Made by a program: the position numbers and the translations under genes
Notes under the pieces: generated by a model
Database searches by the model: none
Seen by the model: only the letters and a program-made list of their open reading frames with translations
What the model was told of the DNA's origin: nothing
Part shown: positions 14,477 through 57,487 of the stretch, one piece after another
Numbering within the stretch: position 1 is the first letter of the stretch
Layout of the letters: the number at the start of each line of letters is the position of its first letter
Virus record (IMG/VR): IMGVR_UViG_2703718819_000006
DNA: 64,000 bases
Origin: a virus
Lineage: Duplodnaviria > Heunggongvirae > Uroviricota > Caudoviricetes
Direction: 5' to 3' (one strand)

Positions 14477-15580
14477 TCACACCGCCACTGGAACCTTGAT
14501 CCACGGTAGAGGGGCATAGCCAAGAATAAGAATCTCGTCCCATTTGAAATCATCCAGCTCAGACCATTCATTAGGGAATATAACGACCGGATCTGAATGC
14601 TCTGGAGCCTGTCGTTGCATTAGCTCACACACACCTTCCATGTGGTTGTTGTACAAATGCACGTCAAAGCCAAAATGCACAAATGCACCGGCCATGTGAC
14701 CCGTAATCTTCGCGAGAAAATGAGTGAGAATGCCATAGCCAGCAATATTGAATGGCATACCAACAAAAGTGTCTACGCTACGCTGTACGAGGCAGGAGTT
14801 GAGGATGCGTTTGGGGATTCCAAGTTCATCCAGTTCAGTTTCAGTAACACTGCCGTCCATCTCCAGATCGTATAGCATCTTGGTGTAGATAGACTCATAA
14901 CCGAGGCGACTGTGTTGAAGACCAATGTCAGTTGCCATCGTTAAACGGGTTTCAAAATCCAGTTCACGACTCCACAAAGAGAAGACAAAGTGGCAAGGTG
15001 GCAGTTTCATATCCTCAAGCTCGCCTACGTTCCATGCGTTAAGCATGATGCGACGATCGGTAGGGTTCGTGCGCAGTGTATCGACAATACGCTGTAGCTG
15101 ATCGATTTCACGGGACAGCACTACGCGATCTTCACTGATACCCAGGTATCCCTCGACTTTGTACCCGCGTTCACGGAAAGTAGCGATCTTGCTCAGATAT
15201 TCACTATGGCTCACGATGCGGGTATCTTCCCATCGACGCCACTGCTTACCGTAAACCGGCCCCAAATCGCCATTCTCATCGGCCCATGCATCCCAAATCT
15301 TAACGCCGTTATCCTTGAGAAATTGGATGTTGCCCGTGCCTTTCAGATACCACTCAAGTTCGACAAGCAGTGGCTTAAGATTTACCGCCTTTCCAGAAAT
15401 AAGCGGCACAGTCCCACCAGTAAGCATGTAGTAAGAGGGAACGTAGCAGGTGCTTAAAGTACCAGTGCCTGTGCGATCATCAGCCTGCACGCCGCTTTTA
15501 AGCACCGTCTCAATAACTTTTGCATACGATGCGTTTGTTACCTGACCGTTCGTATGCTCACGATTCAAAAGGAGTGACAC
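14477..15580 (-). CDS. thyA: thymidylate synthase (ThyA type) with ~50 aa internal insertion
   Basis: DRTGTGT, PPCH active-site motif, GMPFNIAGY; ORF track start 15607 is GTG, a GTG at 15580 has better GAGG RBS (start uncertain). Confidence 0.8.
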   Translation of the reverse strand: MSLLLNREHTNGQVTNASYAKVIETVLKSGVQADDRTGTGTLSTCYVPSYYMLTGGTVPLISGKAVNLKPLLVELEWYLKGTGNIQFLKDNGVKIWDAWADENGDLGPVYGKQWRRWEDTRIVSHSEYLSKIATFRERGYKVEGYLGISEDRVVLSREIDQLQRIVDTLRTNPTDRRIMLNAWNVGELEDMKLPPCHFVFSLWSRELDFETRLTMATDIGLQHSRLGYESIYTKMLYDLEMDGSVTETELDELGIPKRILNSCLVQRSVDTFVGMPFNIAGYGILTHFLAKITGHMAGAFVHFGFDVHLYNNHMEGVCELMQRQAPEHSDPVVIFPNEWSELDDFKWDEILILGYAPLPWIKVPVAV

Positions 15581-15663
15581 AAAAACCTCACAAAGATAAG
15601 TAACCACTTATTCATTAAGTGAGTTTACATTTATTGAGGGAACAAGGCCAGATAGATAAAAAA

Positions 15664-16698: not shown

Positions 16699-17841
16699 TT
16701 ACAGGTCTGCAAACTGGCTTAGAGAAGCCTTATCCACGGTAGAATCGATCTGACCTACCAGATATGTGCTTTGCTCTGCCTCTTGTGGTGCAATTTGCAG
16801 TGTGTCGGTTAACAACCACTTGTTCATCCAGACCAGCGGATCAGTGGTAACTTCTGGAAATAAAGCCTTCAGGCCAAGACGATTCATAGCCAGATTGGTG
16901 CGGTATTTTACATAGGTTTTGAGAATATCCGCGTTTAAACCAATCATCGAACCGTCTTTGAAGAGATAGTCGGCCCAGTTCATTTCTTGTTCGGCGACTG
17001 ATTTCATGGTGTCGTAAATGACGTTTTCTTCATCAGCAGCAATCTCTTTCCACAATAAACCTTCGCGACCGGTACGCATGAAGCGGATCATGCGTTCAGT
17101 TCCTTCGCAATGCAGAGCTTCATCACGGGCAATAAAGCGCATAATTTTGGTGTTACCCTCAAGCAACTTCCGTTCACCAAAGGCAAACGTACATGCAAAA
17201 CTTACGTAGAAACGGATCGCCTCAAGCGCATTAATGGACACCAACGTGCGGAAAAGCTGACGATGCAAAGGGTATGGCTCCCAGCCATATTCATTTACGT
17301 ACAGACGCTCAAATTCCTTCTCACCTAACGACTGGCGCTCGCAGGTCATCCCATAAAGCCTGTCATATTCAGCAGAGATACTGATCGCTCGGTTGATGAT
17401 TTCTTCATCCGTAACAATACCGTCAAAAACAATACTCGGATCGTCCACCATGCCACGAATAATGTGGGTGTAGCTGCGGCTATGGATAGTCTCAGAGAAA
17501 GACCACGTTTCAACCCACGTTTCCAGTTCAGGAATAGAGATAAGCGGCAGCAGCGTTGCATTTGGACTACGTCCCTGAACTGAATCGAGTAACGTTTGAT
17601 AACGGAGATTGCTCAGAAAAATGTGACGTTCGTGGTCCCGCAGCTTCGTGTTGAAGTCGATACGATCGCTCGAAATATCAACTTCTTCCGGCCGCCAGAA
17701 GAAAGACAATTGACGTTCAATCAACTTTTCAAAATCACGGTATTTTTGCTGATCGTAACGTGCCACGTTGACAGATTGTCCGAGGAACATAGGCTCTTTG
17801 GTTGCATCATTAGCACCCAAACGGAACGTTGAATATGACAT
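16699..17841 (-). CDS. nrdB: ribonucleotide reductase class Ia beta subunit
   Basis: Near-collinear with enterobacterial NrdB ([42 protein letters not shown]). Confidence 0.95.
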
Positions 17842-17947
17842 GTGTTTTTCCTTTTTCTTTTTTGGTGCGTTTAAACAAGTTGTTATCTTATGTGTTTAAA
17901 CAAGGCTTACAAATCAAAGAGAAGGTGGGGATATCCCCCACCATATG

Positions 17948-20263
17948 TCAGATTTTGCAGGCTCCGTCGCACTCATCTTCTGGCTCGACGGCTACAGCTT
18001 GCGTCAGTGGATTCTGCGGTTCGTCGTCATCACGCTTTCCTGCCCCATCTCTGGTGTTGTGGTAGTAAAGCGTTTTAACTCCCATCTTGTAGGCGAGAAG
18101 CAAATCTGACAGTAGCGTCATCATTGGGACTTTATCGCCTTCAAAGCGAGAAGGGTCATAGTTGGTATTGGCTGAAATAGCCTGGTCAAAGAACTTCTGG
18201 ATGATCGCCACCTTTGTCAGATAGCCGCGGTTGTCCGGCATATCCCACAGGTATTCATACTGTTCCTTCAGTTTTTCAAACTCAGGCACGACCATCTTGA
18301 CGATGCCGTCCTTAGAAGATTTCACTGACACCGGGCCACGAGGCGGTTCGATGCCGTTGGTGGAATTAGTGATCTGGCTGGAAGTCTCGCATGGCATTTG
18401 TGCCGTCAGTGTGGAGTTGCGAAGGCCGTATTTTGCAATACGTTCACGCAGTTCTTCCCACGGCATCTTTAACTCAAAGTTGGTTTCGCCACTTTCGTCT
18501 AATGAAGAACGGTAATGGTCGATCGGCAACTGACCAATTGCGTATTTGGTCTGCTCAAACCAGTCACACTCACCTTTTGCTTCAGCAAGTCGGCAGCTGG
18601 CATCAAGAAGGTAATACTGGATAGCTTCGAACGTTTCATGCACCAGTTTATTGCCAGCGGTATCAGAATAACGAACGCCATTCTTTGCCAGGTAATAAGC
18701 AAAGTTGGTTACACCAATTCCCAAGCTACGACGAGCTTTGGCAGGCACTTCGGCTGCCTCCATCGGATAGTCTTGATAATCCAGTAACGAATCCAGTGCA
18801 GCAACGGCATAGAACGCCACCTCTTTAAGAGACTCCAGTGAACGGATGGCTCCGAGGTTAAAAGCGGATAAAGTGCATAGCGCGATCTCACCGTTCGGGT
18901 CGTCGGTAAATGCCAGTGGACGGGTGGGTAGGGTGATCTCCATACACAGGTTTGACTGGCGAACAGGTGCAAGAGCAGGAATGAAAGCGCCATGCTCATT
19001 AATATGATCGACGTTCGCAATATAAATTCGGCCCGTGGACGCTCGTTCCTGCATCAGAGATGAGAACAGCTCAATGGCAGGTACTGACTTCTTGCGAATT
19101 GAATCATCGGCTTCGTATTTATGGTACAGCTTTTCAAACAGCTCCTGGTCTGTGAAGAAGGCTTCGTACATATCAGGCACATCATGCGGGCTGAACAGAG
19201 TGATGTTCTCGCTTCTGACGAGTCGACGGTACATTAGACGGTTACTCATGACGCCGTAATCAAGATGGCGAACGCGGTTTTCATCAATACCACGGTTATT
19301 TTTCACCACCAGCAGACTTTCAACTTCAAGATGCCAGATCGGGTAAAACGCTGTTGCTGCGCCACCACGAACACCACCTTGCGAACAAGATTTAACAGCC
19401 GTCTGGAAATGCTTCAGGAATGGAATAACTCCAGTATGGGTGGCTTCACCATTGCGGATCTCGCTGCCCAGCGCACGGATACGGCCAAAACCAATACCAA
19501 TTCCAGCACGACGTGAAACGTAGTCGATAATTGCGGCTGAAGCTGCACTAATCCCTTTCAGACTATCGCCAGACTCAATCAGCACACAACTGGAGAACTG
19601 ACGGGTTGGAGTACGGACGCCGGCCATGATTGGTGTGGGCAGAGACAGTTTGAACGTACTTGTAACGTCATAGAAACCTTTGACCATCTCCATACGTGTT
19701 TTGCCAGCGCAGTCGTCTTCCCAATTCTGGAACAGACACATGCCTACCAGCATATAGATATGTTGCGGTCCCTCATGAATCTCACCAGTAACACGGTTTT
19801 GAACGAGGTATTTGCTTTGCAACTGCACCGTAGCTGCATAGCCAAAAAGATCGTCACGTTTCGGCTTAATGTAATTGCCGAGTTCTTCGATCTCTTCAAA
19901 CGAATAATGTGTCAGCAAATCCTTGTCATAAACGCCCTTGTTAACGTTCTTGACAATGTGTTGGTAGAAGTTCGGATAGTCGTAACGACCGAAGGCATCT
20001 TTGCGGATTTTAAAAATGTTCAGGCGGGCAGCCACCTGTGAGTAATTTGGTGCTTCTGGTGAGATCAAATCAGCGGCAGATTTAACCAAAGCCTCATGCA
20101 ACTGGCTGGTGGTCATCCCATCAAAAATGCTGGCCGCAGCTCCCATTGCTACAGCGGATGCGCTTACACCACGAATGCCTTCTACGCCATACATTACGAC
20201 GCGGTTGTATTTTTCTTCGGATAACGGCTCTGTTTGGCCGTTACGTTTTACGATGCTTATCAT
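17948..20263 (-). CDS. nrdA: ribonucleotide reductase class Ia alpha subunit
   Basis: Near-collinear with enterobacterial NrdA (YLVQNRVTGEI, SCVLIE, CSQGGVRGGAAT, NLCMEI, C-terminal CxxC tail). Confidence 0.95.
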   Translation of the reverse strand: MISIVKRNGQTEPLSEEKYNRVVMYGVEGIRGVSASAVAMGAAASIFDGMTTSQLHEALVKSAADLISPEAPNYSQVAARLNIFKIRKDAFGRYDYPNFYQHIVKNVNKGVYDKDLLTHYSFEEIEELGNYIKPKRDDLFGYAATVQLQSKYLVQNRVTGEIHEGPQHIYMLVGMCLFQNWEDDCAGKTRMEMVKGFYDVTSTFKLSLPTPIMAGVRTPTRQFSSCVLIESGDSLKGISAASAAIIDYVSRRAGIGIGFGRIRALGSEIRNGEATHTGVIPFLKHFQTAVKSCSQGGVRGGAATAFYPIWHLEVESLLVVKNNRGIDENRVRHLDYGVMSNRLMYRRLVRSENITLFSPHDVPDMYEAFFTDQELFEKLYHKYEADDSIRKKSVPAIELFSSLMQERASTGRIYIANVDHINEHGAFIPALAPVRQSNLCMEITLPTRPLAFTDDPNGEIALCTLSAFNLGAIRSLESLKEVAFYAVAALDSLLDYQDYPMEAAEVPAKARRSLGIGVTNFAYYLAKNGVRYSDTAGNKLVHETFEAIQYYLLDASCRLAEAKGECDWFEQTKYAIGQLPIDHYRSSLDESGETNFELKMPWEELRERIAKYGLRNSTLTAQMPCETSSQITNSTNGIEPPRGPVSVKSSKDGIVKMVVPEFEKLKEQYEYLWDMPDNRGYLTKVAIIQKFFDQAISANTNYDPSRFEGDKVPMMTLLSDLLLAYKMGVKTLYYHNTRDGAGKRDDDEPQNPLTQAVAVEPEDECDGACKI

Positions 20264-32891: not shown

Positions 32892-35231
32892 TTACTCTTC
32901 TACTGACTCGGTGGGATTGTCTTTTGATCTCCGGTCGTCGATTGCCTGTAAAGCCGCAATGATTTCAGCTAGTGGCTTCTCCCGATACATCTCGACGATC
33001 TGTGATTTGGTGTATTTCTTGTCACCAATTTCTACTCGACCGCTGGCGTTCTTTGGCAGGTATCCTTCTTCCAGCATGTACTCGACGAGCGACTCGATAA
33101 CGTCGAGGCCACGAGTAGGATCGAAGTAGAATTTCCAGGTGCATTTGCCATACGGTGGTGCAACTTTGTTTTTGATGCACTCTGCGCCTACGTCCTGGCC
33201 GATCTTCTCTTTCCCATCCTTCATCACCGATGCACCGAGACGGATGCGCACAGAAGCGTAAAACTTCGGTGAATCGCCGCCTGGAGACGTAGTAGGGTCG
33301 CCAAACATTACACCGATTTTTGTGCGAACCTGATTCAAGAAGATGATGCAGGCGTTGTATTTGCGTGCCCACAAAGCCAGAGTAGGGAAGTTCGCACTCG
33401 TCGCACGAGCCAGCGCCGTATTGTCGTTCATGTTTAGCTGATCTTTGTCTTTGGCAGTGCCTTCAGCCATCTTTTCGAACTTCTCGGCTTTGGAGTTCGG
33501 AACCATAGACGCAAGTGAGTCAGCCACGATACAGATAGGTGCTGATTCAGGAATAAGCTCTTCATCACGTACCAATTTAAGAATTGTGCCGATCAACTCT
33601 ACAGAGTCTTCGAAGGTATCAGGCTGCTTGTATACCCACTGACCGTCATCCTCATCTGCATTCAAACCATTGGCTACAGCCAGGCCAACGTCAAAACTGT
33701 TTTCATGATCGAGGAATACCGCCAGACCATCTTGTTTTTGAGCGGAGATCATCGCTGCTGTTGCAAGGAATGTGTTGTGGCTGATAATCCCGTTAGACCA
33801 GAAAGAGTGTGTTTCCGGCATCGCTACGTCGAACGTTGGTGCTTCACCTTCCTCAATAGCCACGACTTCGTCGTAGAACAAGTTAGAGCCAATTACCGCT
33901 GCCAGTTGTGCAAACAGATGCTCGTTAAAACGATTCTTTCTGCCAATGAAGGAGACATAGATTTCTCGCAGTTTGTCTATTCCGACACGATCGCCGCGGC
34001 CAATAACGTGGTCTACCAGAGCGTAGTCTTCACGGGTGGTCTTGGTGAGCGACTCGTAGAGTGATTTCACTAAGCCGCTGATGTGCGGAACATAGCCTGA
34101 GTAAGTGCGGTCAAAACCAATGTCCCGTTTGGTTGCCACTGATAAACGTGCCGGAGATTCGAAACCAATCGTTGACAGAAAAAGGTCGTAATTAGAGCCA
34201 CTGAATGACAGCCGGTAATATGTATTTTCATAACCCGCGACGTGTTTTTCAGAGATAGTTGACGTAATCCCCAGATTCAGGAGCATGAGGCGAATTTGCT
34301 GTAGCAGCAGCCCACTCGCGCTCACAACCTCAATGCAGCGACCATCATTGACGTGGCATTCCAGCTCAAAGTAGCCGCGAAGGAATGCAATTTGAGCCTC
34401 GCTATTGGCGCGACGCACACTCAACGGAACCTGCTTGCCAGCAGCTTTCTCATACTCCAGACCATATTCTTTAAAAAGCAGCGAACGCACCTCTTTGCTA
34501 AACAGCACATGGTCTTCCGAGCCGTTATGTTTTCTCGTAACTGGCATCTTGTCTGATACCAGCGAAATGAGGCGGTAGTACTCATCCTTGATGAAAGGAT
34601 CTGTGTTAGAAAAATTCACTGAATTTTCAGAGGCCACGTATCCGTCAGCAATTAAATAGCCCATCAGTTTTGCGATATTGGCATCCAGGTGCTGATCGCC
34701 GAATTGATGTGTGCCAACCATTGAAGGAATCGTGTCGCCTACACTGATTTTTTCAGCATGTCGCCAGACGACATTACCTAAGTCGTCAACCACACGGATT
34801 GGGTGACGGAACGTAGCCTCGATATAACCGCCTGATGCCAGCTTAATACGCTTGAATTTGCGACGGTTGTTCCATGTCAGGTGTGAGGTCTTCTCTATCA
34901 CGCCATTTTCATTGATGAGTCCAACGTTATGCTCTACATCGCGAGTAGTGCATGTCGCTTTGTACCCTTCAATCTCAAACAACTCTTTCACTGTTACCAT
35001 TCCACGCTCCGTCAGCAGCATGGTGTCTGCGGTAACACATTTCCCCGCGCTTGGAGGACCGAATACTTCTACGATACGACCACATGGGAAACCGCCATCG
35101 TAACGACCGGAAATAGCTTTGTTTAACGGAGGAAAGCCTGTGTCAATCCAATGAGTTACTTTCTGAATTTCGTCGTTGCTACCGATTTTCTTTTTCAGAG
35201 CAAGTGCCAGTGCGGATTTTCCTTTTGCCAT
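32892..35231 (-). CDS. RecA-like recombinase interrupted by an intein with LAGLIDADG homing endonuclease domain
   Basis: Exteins give GPPSAGK|TFLATAAM Walker A and RecA-like FLDHENSFD, YKQPDTFEDSVEL; insert begins with Cys, ends SHN, contains LMGYLIADGYV. Confidence 0.8.
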   Translation of the reverse strand: MAKGKSALALALKKKIGSNDEIQKVTHWIDTGFPPLNKAISGRYDGGFPCGRIVEVFGPPSAGKCVTADTMLLTERGMVTVKELFEIEGYKATCTTRDVEHNVGLINENGVIEKTSHLTWNNRRKFKRIKLASGGYIEATFRHPIRVVDDLGNVVWRHAEKISVGDTIPSMVGTHQFGDQHLDANIAKLMGYLIADGYVASENSVNFSNTDPFIKDEYYRLISLVSDKMPVTRKHNGSEDHVLFSKEVRSLLFKEYGLEYEKAAGKQVPLSVRRANSEAQIAFLRGYFELECHVNDGRCIEVVSASGLLLQQIRLMLLNLGITSTISEKHVAGYENTYYRLSFSGSNYDLFLSTIGFESPARLSVATKRDIGFDRTYSGYVPHISGLVKSLYESLTKTTREDYALVDHVIGRGDRVGIDKLREIYVSFIGRKNRFNEHLFAQLAAVIGSNLFYDEVVAIEEGEAPTFDVAMPETHSFWSNGIISHNTFLATAAMISAQKQDGLAVFLDHENSFDVGLAVANGLNADEDDGQWVYKQPDTFEDSVELIGTILKLVRDEELIPESAPICIVADSLASMVPNSKAEKFEKMAEGTAKDKDQLNMNDNTALARATSANFPTLALWARKYNACIIFLNQVRTKIGVMFGDPTTSPGGDSPKFYASVRIRLGASVMKDGKEKIGQDVGAECIKNKVAPPYGKCTWKFYFDPTRGLDVIESLVEYMLEEGYLPKNASGRVEIGDKKYTKSQIVEMYREKPLAEIIAALQAIDDRRSKDNPTESVEE
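33774..35039 (-). other. intein (~422 aa) within RecA-like gene
   Basis: Cys1 after GPPSAGK, LAGLIDADG motif, C-terminal HN followed by Thr+1. Confidence 0.75.
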
Positions 35232-35233
35232 GA

Positions 35234-35500
35234 TCAGGCTCCTTTTGTTTCGTTGATTCGTTTTAAAGCGGCGGATTCGTCGAATACAATCGCATCGTGG
35301 TTAAGGTGTTTGGATACACGAGCGAGGATTTTTACGATCTGCTCGCTGACTAATCCAAACTCGCGATCTGTCGCTTTCATTCCGGCAGTGCCTAGAATTG
35401 ACGGCAGTGCGATGACAGCGTACTCACCGTGATAAAAGACAATCTCTTTTGCCAGTTGGGTAGGGGTGGTGGTAGCGCCATTAATAATCGATTTAAGCAT
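35234..35500 (-). CDS. hypothetical protein
   Basis: ORF track 35234..35506 begins on TTG; ATG at 35500 overlaps FEN stop (TAATG). Confidence 0.45.
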   Translation of the reverse strand: MLKSIINGATTTPTQLAKEIVFYHGEYAVIALPSILGTAGMKATDREFGLVSEQIVKILARVSKHLNHDAIVFDESAALKRINETKGA

Positions 35501-36444
35501 TAGCAATACCTTTCGAATGGAAGAACAAACACTTCAAGGTCTTCAAGGAACGAACGGAAATTCAGCTCGTAGCACAGTTGCTCGAATGCTTTCACGTCAC
35601 GATTGCCTTTGATTGTTTCGATTTCGGTAGGCGGAAACTTCGTCTCAATCAGGTTCATTAGCGTGATGTTTCTCTTGAACGCTTCGAGCATTCGACAGCC
35701 TGTTTTCTCGTTGAAGGCATTCTTCGCTAGTTTGTTGAAGGCGGTCTTATGACGCCCTTTATTAACCACGATTGAGCCGTCGTTGATGCCGCGTACCATC
35801 GTTGCGACACTTCCCCATTCATGCAGCAGCTCTTTCGCACCGCCAGCACCAATGCCACCAACACCGCTAATGTTGTCCGAGTTATCGCCTTGTAATGCTT
35901 TTGCTTCCAAAAATGCGCGAGGCGTGGCGAATCCTGTCAGCTCCGCAAATTGCTCAAAATTAACCTGCTTGTTTTTGGCGTCTTCACGCAGGCTTACCCA
36001 GCTTACGTTTTCGCGAACTAACTGAAGCCAGTCGCTATCGCCTGTTAACAGATAGATGTGTTCAACGGTTGGCTGCGGTGCCATGCGGGATACCAGCAGC
36101 CCGGCCAGATCATCCGCTTCTGCATCTTTTGCAATGATTTGGTTAACACCAAGCGCGGTCATCATTTTGAGGATGTATGGCTTCTGGATAGCAAAGCCTT
36201 CCTTCATCTTTTTCATATCAGGATCGTCGTCGCGATTTGCTTTGTAGTCCGGGTAAAAGTCGCGACGCTTGTCACTAAATCCATCCCAAAGAATCATAGG
36301 TCGGGCATGGAGGATGGAGGCATAACGACGGACGTTCTTAACAAAGCCGAAAGCAGCCTGTACTTCCATTTCGCCGTTGTGCAATTTGTCAGATTGTTGG
36401 TGGTAATAACCCAGGCTATTGCCATCTACGAAGAGATAATTCAC
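35500..36444 (-). CDS. 5'-3' exonuclease / flap endonuclease (FEN)
   Basis: LFVDGNSLGYY, EADDLAGLL, GDSDWLQL, GVGGIGAGGAKELL; ORF track start 36495 is GTG upstream of a terminator hairpin, so a GTG at 36444 with GGAAGGA RBS is preferred. Confidence 0.75.
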   Translation of the reverse strand: MNYLFVDGNSLGYYHQQSDKLHNGEMEVQAAFGFVKNVRRYASILHARPMILWDGFSDKRRDFYPDYKANRDDDPDMKKMKEGFAIQKPYILKMMTALGVNQIIAKDAEADDLAGLLVSRMAPQPTVEHIYLLTGDSDWLQLVRENVSWVSLREDAKNKQVNFEQFAELTGFATPRAFLEAKALQGDNSDNISGVGGIGAGGAKELLHEWGSVATMVRGINDGSIVVNKGRHKTAFNKLAKNAFNEKTGCRMLEAFKRNITLMNLIETKFPPTEIETIKGNRDVKAFEQLCYELNFRSFLEDLEVFVLPFERYC

Positions 36445-36464
36445 CGGTACATTCCTTCCAAAAA

Positions 36465-36488
36465 GTAAGGCGTCCGTAGACGCCTTAC
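36465..36488 (-). terminator. rho-independent terminator candidate downstream of SSB gene
   Basis: gtaaggcgtc cgta gacgccttac hairpin followed by U5 on minus strand. Confidence 0.55.
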
Positions 36489-36504
36489 TGGTCACGTAAT
36501 GGGA

Positions 36505-37533
36505 TTACAGAGAGTCCAGCTCTCTCAGTAGATCATCCAGACCTTCATCTTCCACCGCAGATGCTGCGGCTACAGGTGTTGCTGCGACTGCTTCAGAGTC
36601 TTTGACTGATACAGCAACGGCAGCGGAACTTGCCTCTGGTTTAAATTCAGTTTCAACGGCACGGAGGATTTCTTCATCAACCAGACTGGTTGGTTCAGAA
36701 GCCGGTGTGTGCGCGGTTGCTACAGCCGTCGCTCCTTCTGTATGACCAGTGACAGAGCCAAATCCAGGTAGTGCCGCAGCCGATGTTTTCGCGGTTGAGG
36801 AAATTGCTGGTGCAGATGCTGCGGCAGTTGGTGCAGCGATGCCAATCAGACGACCCATAGTGCGAACTGTCGACAGAAGACGAGTTTCATCAGCCTGATT
36901 TGCGTATGCGATCAGATCATGCTGGGTGTTCCAGAATTTATCTTCGATATCGCCTTTGTAGACTTTACGCTTAGGCGAGACGTCATATTTGGTATCGCGA
37001 CCAGAGCCAGTACGTTTAATCAGGAATGCGTAGCCTTCCTCTTTGCTCAGTGGATTGCCGATATCATCAGCGATGTCTTCGGTGATTGCTTTGCAGATAT
37101 CATCGAATACAGTAGACGGCAGCTCGATTAACTGGCATTTCTCAGCATCTGCGAAATCCTCACGAGCAGAAAGAATGCCGTTGACCAGGTAGCGAGGAGT
37201 GGCACGCATTTGACCGATGCGTTCTTCCATTGCTTTGTTACCCTTGTGACGAGCGCGACCTTCCATCACCATTTCGCATAGCTGACAAGCGCGACCGTGA
37301 GTATGTTGCTCACAAATATAAGCGTTGGTTGCTTCTTTACCTTCCTCGTTCTGATACTTAACGTAGTGCATACCGAAAGTCTGGAAGAACTTACCGTTTG
37401 GGTCGTCTTTATTCGGGAAGATGCGGATATAGTTGACGCCGTCTTTTAAGCGAGTCAGATCAACGTTGTTACCACGTTTGGCGGCAATGTCTTCACGAGT
37501 TTTGTTAAGCAAATCAAGTAATGTCTTAGACAT
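36505..37533 (-). CDS. single-stranded DNA-binding protein, T4 gp32-like, putative
   Basis: Zn-binding-like YICEQHTHGRACQLC, Ala-rich linker and acidic C-terminal tail DEGLDDLLRELDSL. Confidence 0.55.
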   Translation of the reverse strand: MSKTLLDLLNKTREDIAAKRGNNVDLTRLKDGVNYIRIFPNKDDPNGKFFQTFGMHYVKYQNEEGKEATNAYICEQHTHGRACQLCEMVMEGRARHKGNKAMEERIGQMRATPRYLVNGILSAREDFADAEKCQLIELPSTVFDDICKAITEDIADDIGNPLSKEEGYAFLIKRTGSGRDTKYDVSPKRKVYKGDIEDKFWNTQHDLIAYANQADETRLLSTVRTMGRLIGIAAPTAAASAPAISSTAKTSAAALPGFGSVTGHTEGATAVATAHTPASEPTSLVDEEILRAVETEFKPEASSAAVAVSVKDSEAVAATPVAAASAVEDEGLDDLLRELDSL

Positions 37534-37650: not shown

Positions 37651-38082
37651 TCAACGGGGAGTAATAAAGCGTTCAGAGCCTAATCGCTCTAATTCAACGA
37701 TGGCCATCTTTGACGCCTGAACGATCATGTCTCGGCGATGCGAAAAGGCGGCGACAGCATGTTTGTATATGTCTGCGATGTGCCGTGCTTCATCCAACTT
37801 CTGCCTTTTAGACAGATACTGTGGGTTTGTTTTAACCTTAGCGTCCAGTACAGATTCGTTGAACTTAATGCCGTTCATACTCAAGTTCTTACGCTCTGTG
37901 TCGTATAGCTTTGCTTCAACAGCTTCAAGGTTAAGTTTTGCCTCTGCGACACTTCTTTCTGCATGAGCGAGTTTTGAGCCATACTCCATTAAAAGGCGGG
38001 GTTGTCTACGCCAGACTTCCTCCAGATTGTCTCGGTCAAACTCGAGATCAGACATTATTTTCTCGTAAATATCGGTGATCAT
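37651..38082 (-). CDS. hypothetical protein
   Basis: ORF track; conserved leader. Confidence 0.5.
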   Translation of the reverse strand: MITDIYEKIMSDLEFDRDNLEEVWRRQPRLLMEYGSKLAHAERSVAEAKLNLEAVEAKLYDTERKNLSMNGIKFNESVLDAKVKTNPQYLSKRQKLDEARHIADIYKHAVAAFSHRRDMIVQASKMAIVELERLGSERFITPR

Positions 38083-38207: not shown

Positions 38208-41200
38208 TCACGACTTAATAGTTTCTGCTACGTCGGCTAATATCGCTTCTAGTCGTTCTCCCTCTTCAGGTCTGAAGTAAAGAATGTTGGGGTTAAACCC
38301 GTAAAAGACAGTAACGTCAAGGTCTGGAAGATACTCCTTCCTGCCGACCAAATCGGATGGCTTGTTTTTGTTGTTAAACAATGAAGTTGCCCGGCTGCCA
38401 CACGTCAGCACATAGGTCGGACGCACCAGATTGATCTCTTCACGCATAAAGTCGGTGAACTGGCCGATCTCGTCTTTGGTGTAGTCCTTTTCTTTGTCTT
38501 TAACCTTCTTGCAAACGCCTGTGACATAGAGATCGCCCATGCGCAAATCCCCAGCCGTCAACAGCTTGGCCTTAAAATCGTCGTATCCGTTCTCCATAAA
38601 GTAACCGGTTCGAGCATCATTGCCGTTCGCATTGTCCAGAATGATCATGATTTTCGGCTTAATACCAATGCTGGGGCGGATTAGTTCATCACCTAAGCCC
38701 ATTTCAGCCGCCATCCGCGTCATGAGTACGTTAATCTCAGCCGAACGTTTGGGGTTCATCTCAAACGGACGTGAGGCTTTAACTGCGTCTATGACAAGGT
38801 TTCCCATCAATTCAGCCTGGTCGCGTAGGCGCTCTGGATCAGTTGCTGGCAGACTGCCTGGCTCGATGGATGCAAACGCCCCTACTTTTTGCAGCGATTC
38901 GCGCACTCGACTATTACAGGCACGTTTCTCGACAGCTTCTTCGAATTGCGCAAGTGACTCGAATTTGCCACCAACCTTTTCTCGCGCTCTCATGATGGCC
39001 TGGCAGCCATTCTCAGAACACCCCTTCACAGCAGAGAAGGGCGCATACAGCACCTGGCTGCCATCTTCAAGCGTGCGGATCTCAATTCGGTTAGATGACA
39101 CGTTAACGTCTGGTGGCAATACGCGAATACCATAGGTCAGCGCATCTTTAACCAGCCCCTGGTGTTTATCTTCGCCAAGAATAGTGAGAGCAGCAGCGAA
39201 AAACTCTGCGGGATAATGAGTTTTCAACCACATAGATTGATAGCTGATTAAGGAGTAAGCAACAGAGTGTGATTTGTTGAACTGGTAGGCACCATTCTTT
39301 TCGAATGCGGTCCATATCTCCTTCGCTTTCATCTCTGATAGCCCTGGATGTGACGCTGTAACGCGTACTGCGTTTATAGGTAGTTTTGCGCCGTACTCAA
39401 GTGCCTCTTCGACAGTTTTCAGAGTTCCGTCTTCGCATTTAAAATGTTCCGCACGGTGAATGCGCTGTGTAGTGCCATCTTCCAGCTCAACGTCTATCCA
39501 GCCAGCTTGAGCCTGAACGATGAACTTCTCGCCCATGCTCTTCATTTTTTCCATGTCTTTTTTGCCGATCGCTTTACGAACGCCGTCAGCTTCAGCCATT
39601 GTGAAGCCAGCAAGCAATCGAGTCGCGTTCATCGTCTGTTCCTGATAGAGAATCACGCCATTTGTTTCTGCGGTAAGTTCATCAAGAACGGGGTGTAATG
39701 ATTCCGGCGTCATAAAGCCTTTGGCTACAGAAACATAGTCATCCAACATGCCTGACTGAATTGGCCCCGGCCGGAAGAGCGCAGTCGTAGCAACAACCGT
39801 TTTAAAGCTCATTGGCTCAATTCCACCACCTAAATCTTTAAGCAGCTTGCGCATTGGGCCTGATTCAAGCTGGAAAACACCTTGAGTGTACCCAGCAGCA
39901 AAACCATCCAGCACCTTGCGATCTTCAAGAGAAATGGCATCAAGATTGATATCTTCACCTGTGTTCTCTTTTATGTAGCGTTTTGCACTATCGAGCAAAT
40001 CGAGAGTTGCCAGACCAAGTACGTCCAGCTTAATTAGGCCCATAGCCTCGCAGTAACGCTTGTCAAATGCGATACAACGCGCGTCACCACGGCGTTCAAC
40101 CGGTGTACGTTCTGTCAGAGGAACACCTGCTACGATCATCCCTGCCGCATGTCTACCAAAGCCACGCATAAGACTTTGTAACTTGCAGGCAGCATTGAAT
40201 GCATCAGGGTATTTTGTCGCGTATTTGTCGAGACTTGCCAGTTGTTCGCGCAGCTCCTCCAATGGAAGGCTATCATCCTCGACGTTCTTCAGCTCTTTTG
40301 ATACCGCCATATCTGCGGACTCCACACCATAAATACGAGCGGTATCACGTAGTGCAGAGGCTGCGCCCAGGTAGGTGAAGTTCGGAATGCCTGCAACGTA
40401 ATCTTCGCCGTAGCGTTCATTCAGATACTCGATCACCTCATGGCGACGTGCCTGGCTGAAGTCCAAGTCCGCATCCGGCAAGTCGAGACGCTCAGGGTTG
40501 ATGAAACGCTCAAACAGAAGACCGTGACGGATTGGGTCGACGTTGGTTATGCCTATGCACCACGCCACCAGAGAACCGGCAGAGGAACCACGACCAGGCC
40601 CGACAGGAATGCCAGTTTCACGACTGTGATTCATCAGATCGCGTACCATCAGGAAGTAACCACAAAATCCCAGGCGAGTCAGCGTGTCCATTTCGTACTT
40701 TAGCCGCTCAACATAAACCCTGTTCTCAGAAGCAGGTGGTGTGTAGCCAAACTCTTTTGTGGTAAGACGTTTACGCAGCCCTGCAACAGCCAGTTTCATC
40801 AGCGTTGCAGGTTCGTCGTCTGCCATCTTGGGCAGTGCTGGTGGCAATTCATGCCAGCGCCATGTGCAGGCATCGATAATGGAGTCCTGCGTTGTTGAGG
40901 CCATTGCAGCTGTTACCGGCACATCCATGCGAACGGAGAAGGCTTTAAGCGCCTCAAGGAGATGGCGACGACCATTGATGGCGTTATCTCGCTGGTGGGG
41001 GATACGCAGACGATGCGGCTGGTCGATTTTTATGTTGTTCGTAACCATGTGCGCAATGTCTTTAATGTCTGCATCGTCGATCGATTCGTAATAAGCGGGA
41101 TAGAACGCCACTGGCTCTATTTTCAATGCGCTGGCGACTTTCATCGCCCGGACGTTAATCTGGTCGTAGAATGGGGTAGGGTGCGGATAAACCACACTAT

Positions 41201-41726
41201 AGAAGTTGTCTTTTCCACCCGCTGTAATCAGTGAGCTTATGATTTTTGCAAAATCGTTGCGTTGGAACACGCTACCGATGTCGGAAGTGAGCAGGATGAT
41301 GTTGCCTTTGGCATATGTAGAAACCAACTGTTCGAGCGAGAGACGCGGTACAAAGTAGAACTGTTCTCGTGTGTTGGCCACCGTCATTAGTTCGCAGATG
41401 TCGCGATATCCTTGCTCATTTTTAATTAGAGCGGTAAACGAGTAGTTACGTCCTCGCTCTAATGATTCCATACATCCCTTAGACTCTTTAGCAATTTTAG
41501 CCCGGTACTCGTATGTGGGATCATCAACGATATTTAGTTTCACACCACAAATAACCGCCATGTCGTCACCAGCGGCACGTTGTAGTGGAATAACGCTCGC
41601 AATATTCATGCTATCTGCTGAAATTACAGCGGTGTAGCCAGCTTCTCTGGCAATCTTCACCGCGTTTTCTGCTTTTAGAGCCGACTCCCCAAGTGAGAAG
41701 TCAGTTCGAACCATCAGTGCCTTCAT
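38208..41726 (-). CDS. dnaE: DNA polymerase III alpha subunit-like replicative polymerase (DnaE family, N-terminal PHP domain)
   Basis: 1172 aa; PHP-like N-terminus, GIPVGPGRGSAAGSLVAWC and DIDLDF-type palm motifs. Confidence 0.9.
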   Translation of the reverse strand: MKALMVRTDFSLGESALKAENAVKIAREAGYTAVISADSMNIASVIPLQRAAGDDMAVICGVKLNIVDDPTYEYRAKIAKESKGCMESLERGRNYSFTALIKNEQGYRDICELMTVANTREQFYFVPRLSLEQLVSTYAKGNIILLTSDIGSVFQRNDFAKIISSLITAGGKDNFYSVVYPHPTPFYDQINVRAMKVASALKIEPVAFYPAYYESIDDADIKDIAHMVTNNIKIDQPHRLRIPHQRDNAINGRRHLLEALKAFSVRMDVPVTAAMASTTQDSIIDACTWRWHELPPALPKMADDEPATLMKLAVAGLRKRLTTKEFGYTPPASENRVYVERLKYEMDTLTRLGFCGYFLMVRDLMNHSRETGIPVGPGRGSSAGSLVAWCIGITNVDPIRHGLLFERFINPERLDLPDADLDFSQARRHEVIEYLNERYGEDYVAGIPNFTYLGAASALRDTARIYGVESADMAVSKELKNVEDDSLPLEELREQLASLDKYATKYPDAFNAACKLQSLMRGFGRHAAGMIVAGVPLTERTPVERRGDARCIAFDKRYCEAMGLIKLDVLGLATLDLLDSAKRYIKENTGEDINLDAISLEDRKVLDGFAAGYTQGVFQLESGPMRKLLKDLGGGIEPMSFKTVVATTALFRPGPIQSGMLDDYVSVAKGFMTPESLHPVLDELTAETNGVILYQEQTMNATRLLAGFTMAEADGVRKAIGKKDMEKMKSMGEKFIVQAQAGWIDVELEDGTTQRIHRAEHFKCEDGTLKTVEEALEYGAKLPINAVRVTASHPGLSEMKAKEIWTAFEKNGAYQFNKSHSVAYSLISYQSMWLKTHYPAEFFAAALTILGEDKHQGLVKDALTYGIRVLPPDVNVSSNRIEIRTLEDGSQVLYAPFSAVKGCSENGCQAIMRAREKVGGKFESLAQFEEAVEKRACNSRVRESLQKVGAFASIEPGSLPATDPERLRDQAELMGNLVIDAVKASRPFEMNPKRSAEINVLMTRMAAEMGLGDELIRPSIGIKPKIMIILDNANGNDARTGYFMENGYDDFKAKLLTAGDLRMGDLYVTGVCKKVKDKEKDYTKDEIGQFTDFMREEINLVRPTYVLTCGSRATSLFNNKNKPSDLVGRKEYLPDLDVTVFYGFNPNILYFRPEEGERLEAILADVAETIKS

Positions 41727-56146: not shown

Positions 56147-57487
56147 TTAGGTAACGTCTAAGATTCGCTCAATGAAGCGCATTTGTTCGAGGTTTTGTTT
56201 AACGCGAATGCTGATCCCTCCCTGCTGGTTACGTGAACCAGCAAAGTAGAGACGAGCCTCTCCTTTCGCTTCTTCTTCTTCGGTTTTGTTGATCGTTATT
56301 ACCAGGTCAGCAATACGTACTTTTTCGATGTTGTCGGCAGCGTGCATCATTGTGGCAACTTCTGACGCGCCACCTTCACGGTTTGTCTGCGATGCCGTGA
56401 TCCCAGCAACGTTATGCTTGTCATAAAGAGCACGTAAATCGGTGTAGATACTACGAATGTTGGCGCGATCATCACGAAGGTCATAACTGGCACGCATCAA
56501 ATCTGCGTAGTCGACAACAACCATGTCAGGCACCATGCCGTTGGCTTTCATGCTGTTAAGCATACGGTCCAGATCTGCCGGTGACATACTTCCTGACGGA
56601 CGCTCAACCACCCACAAACTACCAATCCCCTTCGTGGCTCCCAACTCTGCCAACTTACGATGAACCTCATCGCGCCGTTCCACCAGCTTGGACATTTCTG
56701 TCTCCGACAATCTTGCATCAAAACGGTCGGATAAAATGGTGGTGTGAACCTCCAGCGAGAGATACAGAACATTGTAGCCAGCAAGCGTTGCGTTTATGGA
56801 AAACTCACCCATTGCGGTCGATTTACCGGATTTAGCGAACCCCATGAAGAGCACCATTTCGCGCTTTGCCCAGCCTTTTTGGTACAGCAACCTATCGAGA
56901 AGAGGGAGTCCAGTTGTAATACTGTTTGGTACATACTCCTCTGAAGCCTCATATTCACGCGCTTTCAATCGCTCACTTGCGGAGGTGTAGTAGTCATAGA
57001 TTCCGGTCGCTTCGTTCGATCCAATCTGCTGAACCTTGGCCATGATTGCCATCGCCCCCTGAAAGTCGCCTTTCTCTTTCAGTTCAGCAGCCTTAATCAG
57101 AGCATCATCAAACGCTACACTTTTTGCGAAGGTTGATACCTGGTCAACCATGTACGAGGTATCGGACAATTTTTCTGCAAGAATACGCTTAAACGCAGCA
57201 ACAACATCGGCGAATAGTTCCTCACGGATAGTCTTATCGCGTTTCGCACGCTTAAGCATATCCAGAATTGCAGATGAAGAGGGCGCGCTCTTGTACATAC
57301 GGTAATAGCCCGAAACCATATTAACCAATATGGCATTGGCCGCATTGGCAAACTGGCTAGGCACAACCAGATCTCCCGCACGAGTAAGAAACTCGTGATC
57401 ACGACAAAAATATGCCGTCAGTCTGTTCTGGAAATCTTCATCAAACTCTTCGGACAGCCCGCGTCCTGTATGGCAAAGTTCGGTCAT
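56147..57487 (-). CDS. replicative DNA helicase (DnaB-like, RecA-fold)
   Basis: Walker A GFAKSGKST, Walker B VVVDYADLM, arginine finger region. Confidence 0.8.
   Translation of the reverse strand: MTELCHTGRGLSEEFDEDFQNRLTAYFCRDHEFLTRAGDLVVPSQFANAANAILVNMVSGYYRMYKSAPSSSAILDMLKRAKRDKTIREELFADVVAAFKRILAEKLSDTSYMVDQVSTFAKSVAFDDALIKAAELKEKGDFQGAMAIMAKVQQIGSNEATGIYDYYTSASERLKAREYEASEEYVPNSITTGLPLLDRLLYQKGWAKREMVLFMGFAKSGKSTAMGEFSINATLAGYNVLYLSLEVHTTILSDRFDARLSETEMSKLVERRDEVHRKLAELGATKGIGSLWVVERPSGSMSPADLDRMLNSMKANGMVPDMVVVDYADLMRASYDLRDDRANIRSIYTDLRALYDKHNVAGITASQTNREGGASEVATMMHAADNIEKVRIADLVITINKTEEEEAKGEARLYFAGSRNQQGGISIRVKQNLEQMRFIERILDVT

Follow-up and report, generated by a model that had tools for sequence, protein, structure and literature searches.

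The interrupted recombinase gene

The window analyzed here is a 64,000-nucleotide (nt) stretch of DNA from a virus of the class Caudoviricetes (IMG/VR record IMGVR_UViG_2703718819_000006), and its minus strand carries a gene for a RecA/UvsX-like recombinase that is interrupted by an intein of the LAGLIDADG type. An earlier note, made from the letters of the window, had described a 779-amino-acid (aa) open reading frame (ORF) with an insert of about 422 aa at 33774-35039, and these coordinates proved exact to the base. The parts of the gene are as follows.

32892..35231, minus strand: precursor ORF, 779 aa, 86.6 kDa, a RecA/UvsX-like recombinase split by the intein
35040..35231, minus strand: N-extein, aa 1-64, with the C-terminal Walker A sequence GPPSAGK, which aligns to GPESSGK of E. 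coli RecA (PDB 3cmu)
33774..35039, minus strand: intein, 422 aa, 47.5 kDa, precursor residues 65-486
32892..33773, minus strand: C-extein, aa 487-779, with Thr+1 as its first residue, containing the RecA core (Pfam RecA, residues 484-703)

The junctions in the precursor read ...VFGPPSAGK/CVTADT..., in which Cys is residue 65, and ...NGIISHN/TFLATAAM..., in which Asn is residue 486 (a slash marks a junction throughout). The insertion lies between Lys64 and the Thr of the Walker A motif, and Thr+1 of the C-extein doubles as the Thr of GKT. The two extein pieces flank GPESSGK-TT when aligned to E. coli RecA, and once the insert is excised in silico, Walker A is contiguous (GPPSAGKT) in the resulting protein of 357 aa. 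The Pfam RecA family is matched by the precursor in two stretches (E 3.4e-36), and the C-extein matches RecA structures in the PDB with E about 1e-27. That the exteins rebuild the Walker A motif of a RecA-like recombinase, as the earlier note had it, is borne out by the removal of the insert and by the Pfam match. The identification of the insert as a LAGLIDADG intein likewise holds, with the Pfam families LAGLIDADG_3 (PF14528; 63.4 bits, cut-off 22.5) and Intein_splicing (PF14890; 44.3 bits, cut-off 35.8) both above their cut-offs, together with the NCBIfam model TIGR01445, intein_Nterm (35.5 bits, cut-off 24.5). The GC content of the intein (0.482) is nearly equal to that of the exteins (0.486), and base composition is therefore uninformative on its origin.

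Motifs and predicted fold of the intein

The intein comprises an N-terminal splicing region, a central endonuclease region and a short C-terminal splicing segment.

34695..35039, minus strand: N-terminal splicing (HINT) region, intein aa 1-115, with Cys1 and block B; the boundary is approximate (TIGR01445, AlphaFold2 model)
34803..34814, minus strand: block B TxxH, T76-F-R-H79
33885..34694, minus strand: predicted homing-endonuclease region, intein aa 116-385, a LAGLIDADG core and a helical region; the boundaries are approximate (PF14528, AlphaFold2 model, Foldseek)
34635..34667, minus strand: LAGLIDADG motif 1, LMGYLIADGYV, intein aa 125-135, candidate catalytic Asp132
34350..34385, minus strand: LAGLIDADG motif 2, FLRGYFELECHV, intein aa 219-230, candidate catalytic Glu227
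33774..33839, minus strand: blocks F and G, PTFDVAMPETHSFWSNGIISHN, ending in His421-Asn422 and followed by Thr+1

The initial Cys, the sequence LMGYLIADGYV and the terminal SHN before Thr+1, which had been listed from the letters of the window, are all read in the translation. Cys1, the start of block A, is invariant in the alignment of the intein family, as are T76 and H79 of block B. The two LAGLIDADG motifs lie about 95 residues apart and have an acidic residue at motif position 8 in both, their cores being L125-MGYLIA-D132-G and L220-RGYFEL-E227-C. The HN/T ending of blocks F and G is kept in the relatives P0005, P0007, P0012, P0013 and P0014. There are four cysteines in the intein, at positions 1, 30, 228 and 235.

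An AlphaFold2 model of the intein, built on a 14-sequence alignment, has a mean pLDDT of 81.6 and a pTM of 0.85. In this model, the N-terminal residues 1-107 are beta-rich and are followed by an alpha/beta core with extra helices and a C-terminal beta hairpin. A Foldseek comparison with the PDB returned as best structural matches TliVMA (7qss; E 6.6e-20, TM-score 0.68), PI-PkoII (2cw7), PI-PfuI (1dq3) and PI-SceI (1vde), in this order, with E-values from 6.6e-20 to 8e-09 and TM-scores up to 0.68. These archaeal and yeast proteins share the architecture predicted here, a LAGLIDADG endonuclease nested in a HINT domain, although their sequence identity is only 10-20% and their hosts are a V-ATPase, DNA polymerase and ribonucleotide reductase. 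Mini-inteins (Pyrococcus horikoshii (Pho) RadA and Mycobacterium tuberculosis (Mtu) RecA) and I-DmoI come later among the matches, and the hedgehog Hint domain was matched as well. Residues from about 296 to 385, which are all-helical in the model, gave no match to a specific known DNA-recognition domain. Judged by its motifs and its predicted fold, the insert has all structural hallmarks of a class-1 intein with a two-motif LAGLIDADG endonuclease.

Host recombinase and replicon

Across the recombinase gene, the window is 98% identical to the Escherichia phages PhiR41_1 and Cyrano, and a relationship to the Salmonella phage SSU5 is seen as well. Its plasmid relatives are about 110 kb long and mostly non-mobilizable, with IncFIB or rep_cluster_488 replicons in the records inspected. 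On these sequence relationships, the window is an SSU5-like phage-plasmid. The spliced extein matches the PHROGs family phrog_97, UvsX-like recombinase (E 1e-91), and falls below the threshold of the recA equivalog model TIGR02012 (132.5 bits, cut-off 325.3); the score against NF007072, the mycobacterial-type "intein-containing recombinase RecA" (100.8 bits, cut-off 1024), is also below the threshold. By these profile scores, the host protein is a phage RecA/UvsX-like recombinase and not a cellular RecA.

The annotation of the 779-aa product varies between databases. In RefSeq it is mostly named "LAGLIDADG family homing endonuclease", and other records carry the names "hint domain-containing protein", "recombinase RecA", "hypothetical protein" and, in some GenBank/RefSeq entries, "intein-containing recombinase RecA". 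In PHROGs, phrog_9666 is a 779-position profile of the precursor and is labelled as of unknown function. Both the RefSeq endonuclease name and the PHROGs label mask a core recombination gene.

Intein-less alleles and distribution

The same gene is present without the insert in Escherichia phage CMS-2020a and in plasmid pLAO7, where the 357-aa product is identical at 356 of 357 residues to the deduced spliced extein. The comparison with intein-less homologs that the earlier note had proposed thus finds an uninterrupted gene with an in-frame junction, and the spliced product of about 357 aa that it deduced has a natural counterpart. The intein sits exactly in frame between an AAA (Lys) and an ACN (Thr) codon. 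The alleles of SSU5, Y. pestis, Enterobacter and Klebsiella are also uninterrupted; the recombinase gene occurs on Yersinia pestis plasmids too and is intein-less in the one copy examined. At the junction, the intein-less alleles (CMS-2020a, pLAO7, SSU5, Y. pestis and others) read GPPSAGKTFLATAAM, an example of the intein-less site being CCAAGTGCAGGGAAAACGTTCCTTGCA. The empty sites are AGTGCAGGGAAA/ACGTTCCTTGCA in CMS-2020a, AGTGCTGGCAAA/ACCTTCCTGGCG in Klebsiella and AGCGCCGGTAAA/ACCTTTTTGGCA in SSU5.

Presence of the intein is polymorphic. Among PLSDB plasmids it is found in 248, compared with 691 that carry the C-extein; by genus, its carriers number 123 for Escherichia, 71 for Klebsiella, 41 for Enterobacter and 6 for Citrobacter, with a few further ones. 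The 5,426 complete E. coli genomes searched contain the intein in 120 cases and the C-extein in 243, and exact-pattern scans of IMG/VR contigs returned 28 occupied and 71 empty junctions. No chromosomal copy was found among the complete E. coli genomes, in which every copy is on a plasmid. In contrast to that search, two short proteins, P0018 (159 aa) and P0019 (105 aa), which are 68-73% identical to parts of the intein, come from the annotation of an E. coli contig of chromosome size (5.2 Mb; locus tag QM042_02415); they may represent a diverged, fragmented copy of the intein.

Evidence for recent homing

Divergence of the intein is discordant with that of its host gene. Between the window and the Klebsiella and Citrobacter alleles, the intein DNA is 97% identical whereas the exteins are 79-85% identical, and between Citrobacter and Klebsiella the corresponding values are 99.8% and about 85%. 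Synonymous divergence (dS) is 0.09 for the intein versus 1.3-2.0 for the exteins. Presence and absence of the intein are also polymorphic between alleles with exteins 96-97% identical.

The sequence directly beside the junctions carries a second signal. Two short synonymous flanks, the halves of the putative homing site split by the intein, are linked to its presence.

35040..35051, minus strand: upstream half of the split homing site, synonymous flank AGC GCG GGG AAA, intein-linked
33762..33773, minus strand: downstream half of the split homing site, synonymous flank ACA TTC CTT GCA, intein-linked

The N-side flank GCGGGGAAA (GCG GGG AAA) is present in 35 of 36 intein-bearing alleles compared with 5 of 79 intein-less ones, and the C-side flank ACATTCCT (ACA TTC CT) in each of the 28 alleles in which an intein is present and the C-junction complete, compared with none of the 79 intein-less ones. 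Past about 7-12 nt from the junction, the flanks return to lineage-specific sequence, as seen in three diverged lineages. The E. coli allele Ec_22AR0322 has the C-side signature and retains the GCA of its own lineage on the N-side; the ends of the tracts therefore vary, as expected from double-strand break repair. An empty allele with the intein-type flank, the mark of a precise loss or of a donor site, was not found in PLSDB with a 48-nt junction query, which covers the E. coli-type flank only and for which megablast requires an exact 28-mer, nor in IMG/VR with a degenerate pattern.

The endonuclease region also appears to be maintained. Its ratio of nonsynonymous to synonymous substitution rates (dN/dS) is about 0.17, a value obtained from only about 25 substitutions, neither acidic residue is lost, and the 28 intein copies of IMG/VR, complete or truncated by contig ends, are free of stop codons. 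From these features, the endonuclease region looks functional.

Two haplotypes of the intein, differing at 40 sites, can be distinguished: haplotype A, the E. coli type present in the window, and haplotype B, found in Klebsiella, Enterobacter and Citrobacter. Single-crossover A/B chimeric inteins occur in the IMG/VR contigs L027, L028 and L044 and in phage Cyrano (L001). The N-extein of L028 and L044 matches that of the window at 99% identity but the C-extein at only about 84%, which indicates that the recombinase gene is mosaic with a breakpoint inside the intein. Taken together, the occupancy of the gene, the identity discordance, the flank signature and the chimeras point to recent homing. 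The description of the locus as a mobile element within a mobile element, offered in the earlier note, is thus upheld on both levels: the window is an SSU5-like phage-plasmid, and the intein bears signs of recent horizontal spread.

Variants, remnants and relatives of the intein

The intein of contig L045 (IMGVR_UViG_3300028993_000030) has an in-frame 6-nt deletion downstream of the LAGLIDADG core (...LSTIG--SPARL...) and is 420 aa long, with additional substitutions near the deletion. Remnant ORFs that start inside the intein are present in larger mosaic plasmids: L012 (pSTK39-3-E-B), L013 (pCUVM3.1) and L018 (pHH194M-140K). A type III restriction-modification endonuclease (L012), a restriction endonuclease fragment (L013) and a DEAD/DEAH helicase-family protein (L018) lie beside them. 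The partial copies in E. coli plasmids were considered as mini-inteins and rejected, as the 5' part of the intein is missing and insertion sequence fragments adjoin in the two copies inspected with annotation (L012, L013), and L018 likewise begins inside the intein.

The intein family is small in the databases searched, and a second, profile-based search added few relatives. The orthologous recombinase of a syntenic metagenomic phage contig, L010, is interrupted at the same site by an endonuclease-bearing intein of 44% identity; the gene order there is DNA polymerase III alpha, gp32, exonuclease, intein-containing recombinase and ligase. In this gene (L010:6001-8388; ENA ERZ27257820 k141_7541), an in-frame TGA replaces the conserved Trp of block F (HSF*SNGFISHN/T, the asterisk denoting the TGA) and the gene call is split; possible explanations for the TGA are a nonsense mutation, an error of sequencing or its reading as Trp. 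Relatives that are 27-41% identical occupy the GK/C...HN/T position of more typical bacterial-type RecA proteins, one of them on a 550-kb contig. The endonuclease is degenerate or missing in P0007 (350 aa), P0012 (363 aa) and P0013 (241 aa). The family also includes a mini-intein of 171 aa in the Walker A motif (GPPGLGK/C...NHN/T) of P0014, a metagenomic RuvB protein of 542 aa; this placement indicates that the family has crossed between different P-loop ATPases. Inteins are known to pass through a homing cycle, and by analogy the full, degenerate and mini forms found here fit that usual cycle.

Comparison with known inteins

The intein is very probably not new and corresponds to an element already catalogued at RecA insertion point c2. 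Table 1 of Topilina et al. 2015 (Nucleic Acids Res 43:6631; PMC4513877) lists "RecA" inteins at c2 with coordinates 65-486; these entries, M8ZI95 and V3IU74 among them, are proteins of Enterobacter cloacae, Enterobacter sp. and, in several cases, E. coli. Judged by these coordinates and host genera, the present intein and the c2 inteins are very probably the same element. Over the intein, partial E. coli proteins that carry the database name "recombinase RecA" show 98-100% identity to it, and the insertion, between the Lys and the Thr that end Walker A, lies at point c (the P-loop) of the RecA/RadA scheme. Topilina et al. treat the host as a bacterial RecA, and the word "phage" is absent from their paper, whereas the host found here is a phage-type recombinase on phage-plasmids. 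A search of the literature library available found no paper that links an intein to SSU5-like phage-plasmids.

The closest counterpart in position is the mini-intein of Pyrococcus horikoshii RadA at point c1 (PDB 4e2t/4e2u), which shares the GK/T site, Thr+1 and the HINT fold. It differs from the present intein, to which it has little sequence similarity, in lacking an endonuclease and in its archaeal, hyperthermophilic origin; independent invasion was inferred by Topilina et al. (PMC4513877). In the Pho RadA intein, splicing is conditional and controlled by the exteins, and the likeness of the present intein to it is one of site and fold alone. The RecA inteins of M. tuberculosis and M. leprae (sites a and b) are likewise LAGLIDADG inteins in a RecA-family host, with a shared HINT fold (Foldseek E of about 1e-3 for the splicing domain of the Mtu RecA intein), but they are inserted at aa 252 and 206 of a chromosomal RecA. 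Inteins are found most often in the P-loop, and phages have been proposed as vehicles that spread them (Kelley et al. 2016, mBio, PMC5050341; Novikova et al. 2016, MBE, PMC4760082). The P-loop inteins of mycobacteriophage terminase and of DnaB belong to other hosts and lineages. What the present intein shares with such inteins of phage and replication ATPases is the P-loop site, in which the related mini-intein of RuvB (P0014) also lies.

Proposed mechanism and alternative explanations

It is highly probable that the element is a class-1 intein with a LAGLIDADG homing endonuclease, seated in the Walker A motif of a phage-plasmid RecA/UvsX-like recombinase, and that it both splices and homes. 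Splicing would begin with an N-S acyl shift at Cys1, followed by attack of the Thr+1 hydroxyl (transesterification) and by cyclization of Asn422 with the assistance of the penultimate His; an O-N shift would then yield the 39.0-kDa recombinase with GPPSAGKT and the free 47.5-kDa intein. The unspliced precursor should be inactive and its P-loop not formed, because the P-loop Lys and Thr lie 422 residues apart. For homing, the free intein would cut the intact GCN GGN AAA/ACN TTY site of a co-resident intein-less phage-plasmid, and repair off the occupied copy would transfer the intein along with flanking sequence of about 7-12 nt per side.

Several points weigh against this proposal. Motifs, fold and population patterns are the basis on which splicing and DNA cleavage are proposed, and the dN/dS value draws on few substitutions. 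The alleles sampled lack phylogenetic independence and there is overlap between IMG/VR, PLSDB and RefSeq, for which reason Fisher P values overstate significance. The flank signature itself could in part reflect a few invasions followed by clonal spread, and the chimeric inteins show that parts of the element travel by ordinary homologous recombination as well. This last point bears on an alternative in which the endonuclease is dead and the intein is a passive passenger, spread by the general mosaic recombination of phage-plasmids. Homologous exchange at the locus is evident from the A/B chimeras and the mosaic host genes (L028, L044, L027 and Cyrano), and the distant relatives P0007, P0012, P0013 and P0014 have lost the endonuclease. 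Generic recombination at 80-85% identity would, however, bring in long and variable tracts, whereas donor-type sequence ends here within about 7-12 nt, and the intact acidic residues, the low dN/dS and the reading frames free of stops in the 28 IMG/VR copies speak against a dead endonuclease; we regard the passive reading as improbable. Less credible still is an insert that does not splice at all, leaving an inactivated recombinase or a fusion that serves only as an endonuclease. The RefSeq name of the whole product as a homing endonuclease and the PHROGs entry of unknown function would be in keeping with it, but all splicing residues are conserved in relatives down to 27-45% identity, the reading frame is kept in every full copy examined, and some GenBank/RefSeq records already recognize an intein-containing recombinase, which leaves this explanation with hardly any probability.

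In a further alternative, the intein would have become a conditional-splicing switch by co-option, keeping the recombinase (and its ATPase) silent until a signal of temperature, redox state or the transition from plasmid to lytic growth. Such a role is suggested by the Pho RadA intein, which occupies the homologous P-loop site and splices under the control of its native exteins (PMC4513877), by the inactive precursor that the P-loop position implies, by the presence of the intein in about half of the E. coli carriers, and by its four cysteines, with which redox sensing is possible in principle. Recent spread, an intact endonuclease and presence/absence polymorphism are nevertheless fully explained by selfish homing. 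The extein-intein orientations of the Pho type were infeasible in models of the E. coli RecA precursor (PMC4513877, data not shown there), and a Cys1-Cys+1 disulfide trap is impossible since the +1 residue is Thr. A switch is compatible with mobility of the intein; we nonetheless consider it unlikely. The suggestion in the earlier note that splicing efficiency could gate recombination is speculative in the same way. With similar reserve, the intein may be viewed as more than a parasite, either as a conditional gate on the recombination module or as a 1.3-kb island of homology that aids exchange between diverged SSU5-like phage-plasmids across genera. The mosaic recombinase genes broken inside the intein fit the second of these ideas. 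If it exists, the gate would keep the recombination module silent during plasmid maintenance and active in lytic replication or stress.

Neighboring genes in the window

The interrupted recombinase gene lies beside other genes of a recombination and replication module.

35500-36495: 5'-3' exonuclease
36505-37533: gp32-like single-stranded DNA-binding protein
37651-38082: 143-aa ORF with a weak UvsY-like mediator match (phrog_231, E 1e-4); its syntenic counterpart in Cyrano carries the annotation UvsY
38208-41726: DNA polymerase III alpha

Between the exonuclease and the recombinase lies a 90-aa ORF (35234-35506, minus strand) that belongs to phrog_2207, is unassigned in function and has no Pfam match; it is conserved in every SSU5-like relative inspected. 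Ribonucleotide reductase subunits, DNA polymerase III alpha and DnaB-like helicases are classic intein hosts. In the window, no intein and no HNH or LAGLIDADG domain was found in the large and small ribonucleotide reductase subunits (16699-20263), the DnaB-like helicase (56147-57487), DNA polymerase III alpha (38208-41726; these three loci on the minus strand), the ligase or ThyA. The ThyA ORF (14477-15607, minus strand) is 376 aa long, with a GTG start that is possibly over-extended, while bacterial ThyA is about 264 aa. An intein as the cause of this length was ruled out; compared with solved ThyA structures, the ORF has two lineage-specific insertions, one at about aa 129-165 and the other at about aa 214-270.

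Significance

What the present comparison adds to an intein that is very probably catalogued already is its phage-plasmid context, together with comparative sequence evidence for ongoing homing and for intein-centered recombination in the phage-plasmids of Enterobacteriaceae. SSU5-like phage-plasmids are common in clinical Enterobacteriaceae, and the context of the "E. coli RecA intein" is corrected to the RecA/UvsX-like recombinase of these elements in place of cellular RecA. With occupied and empty alleles at roughly 1:1 in E. coli, and with near-identical inteins in host genes whose dS is above 1, the locus offers a natural system for studies of homing. Its very short co-conversion tracts and chimeric inteins could make the dynamics of intein homing measurable in a tractable host.

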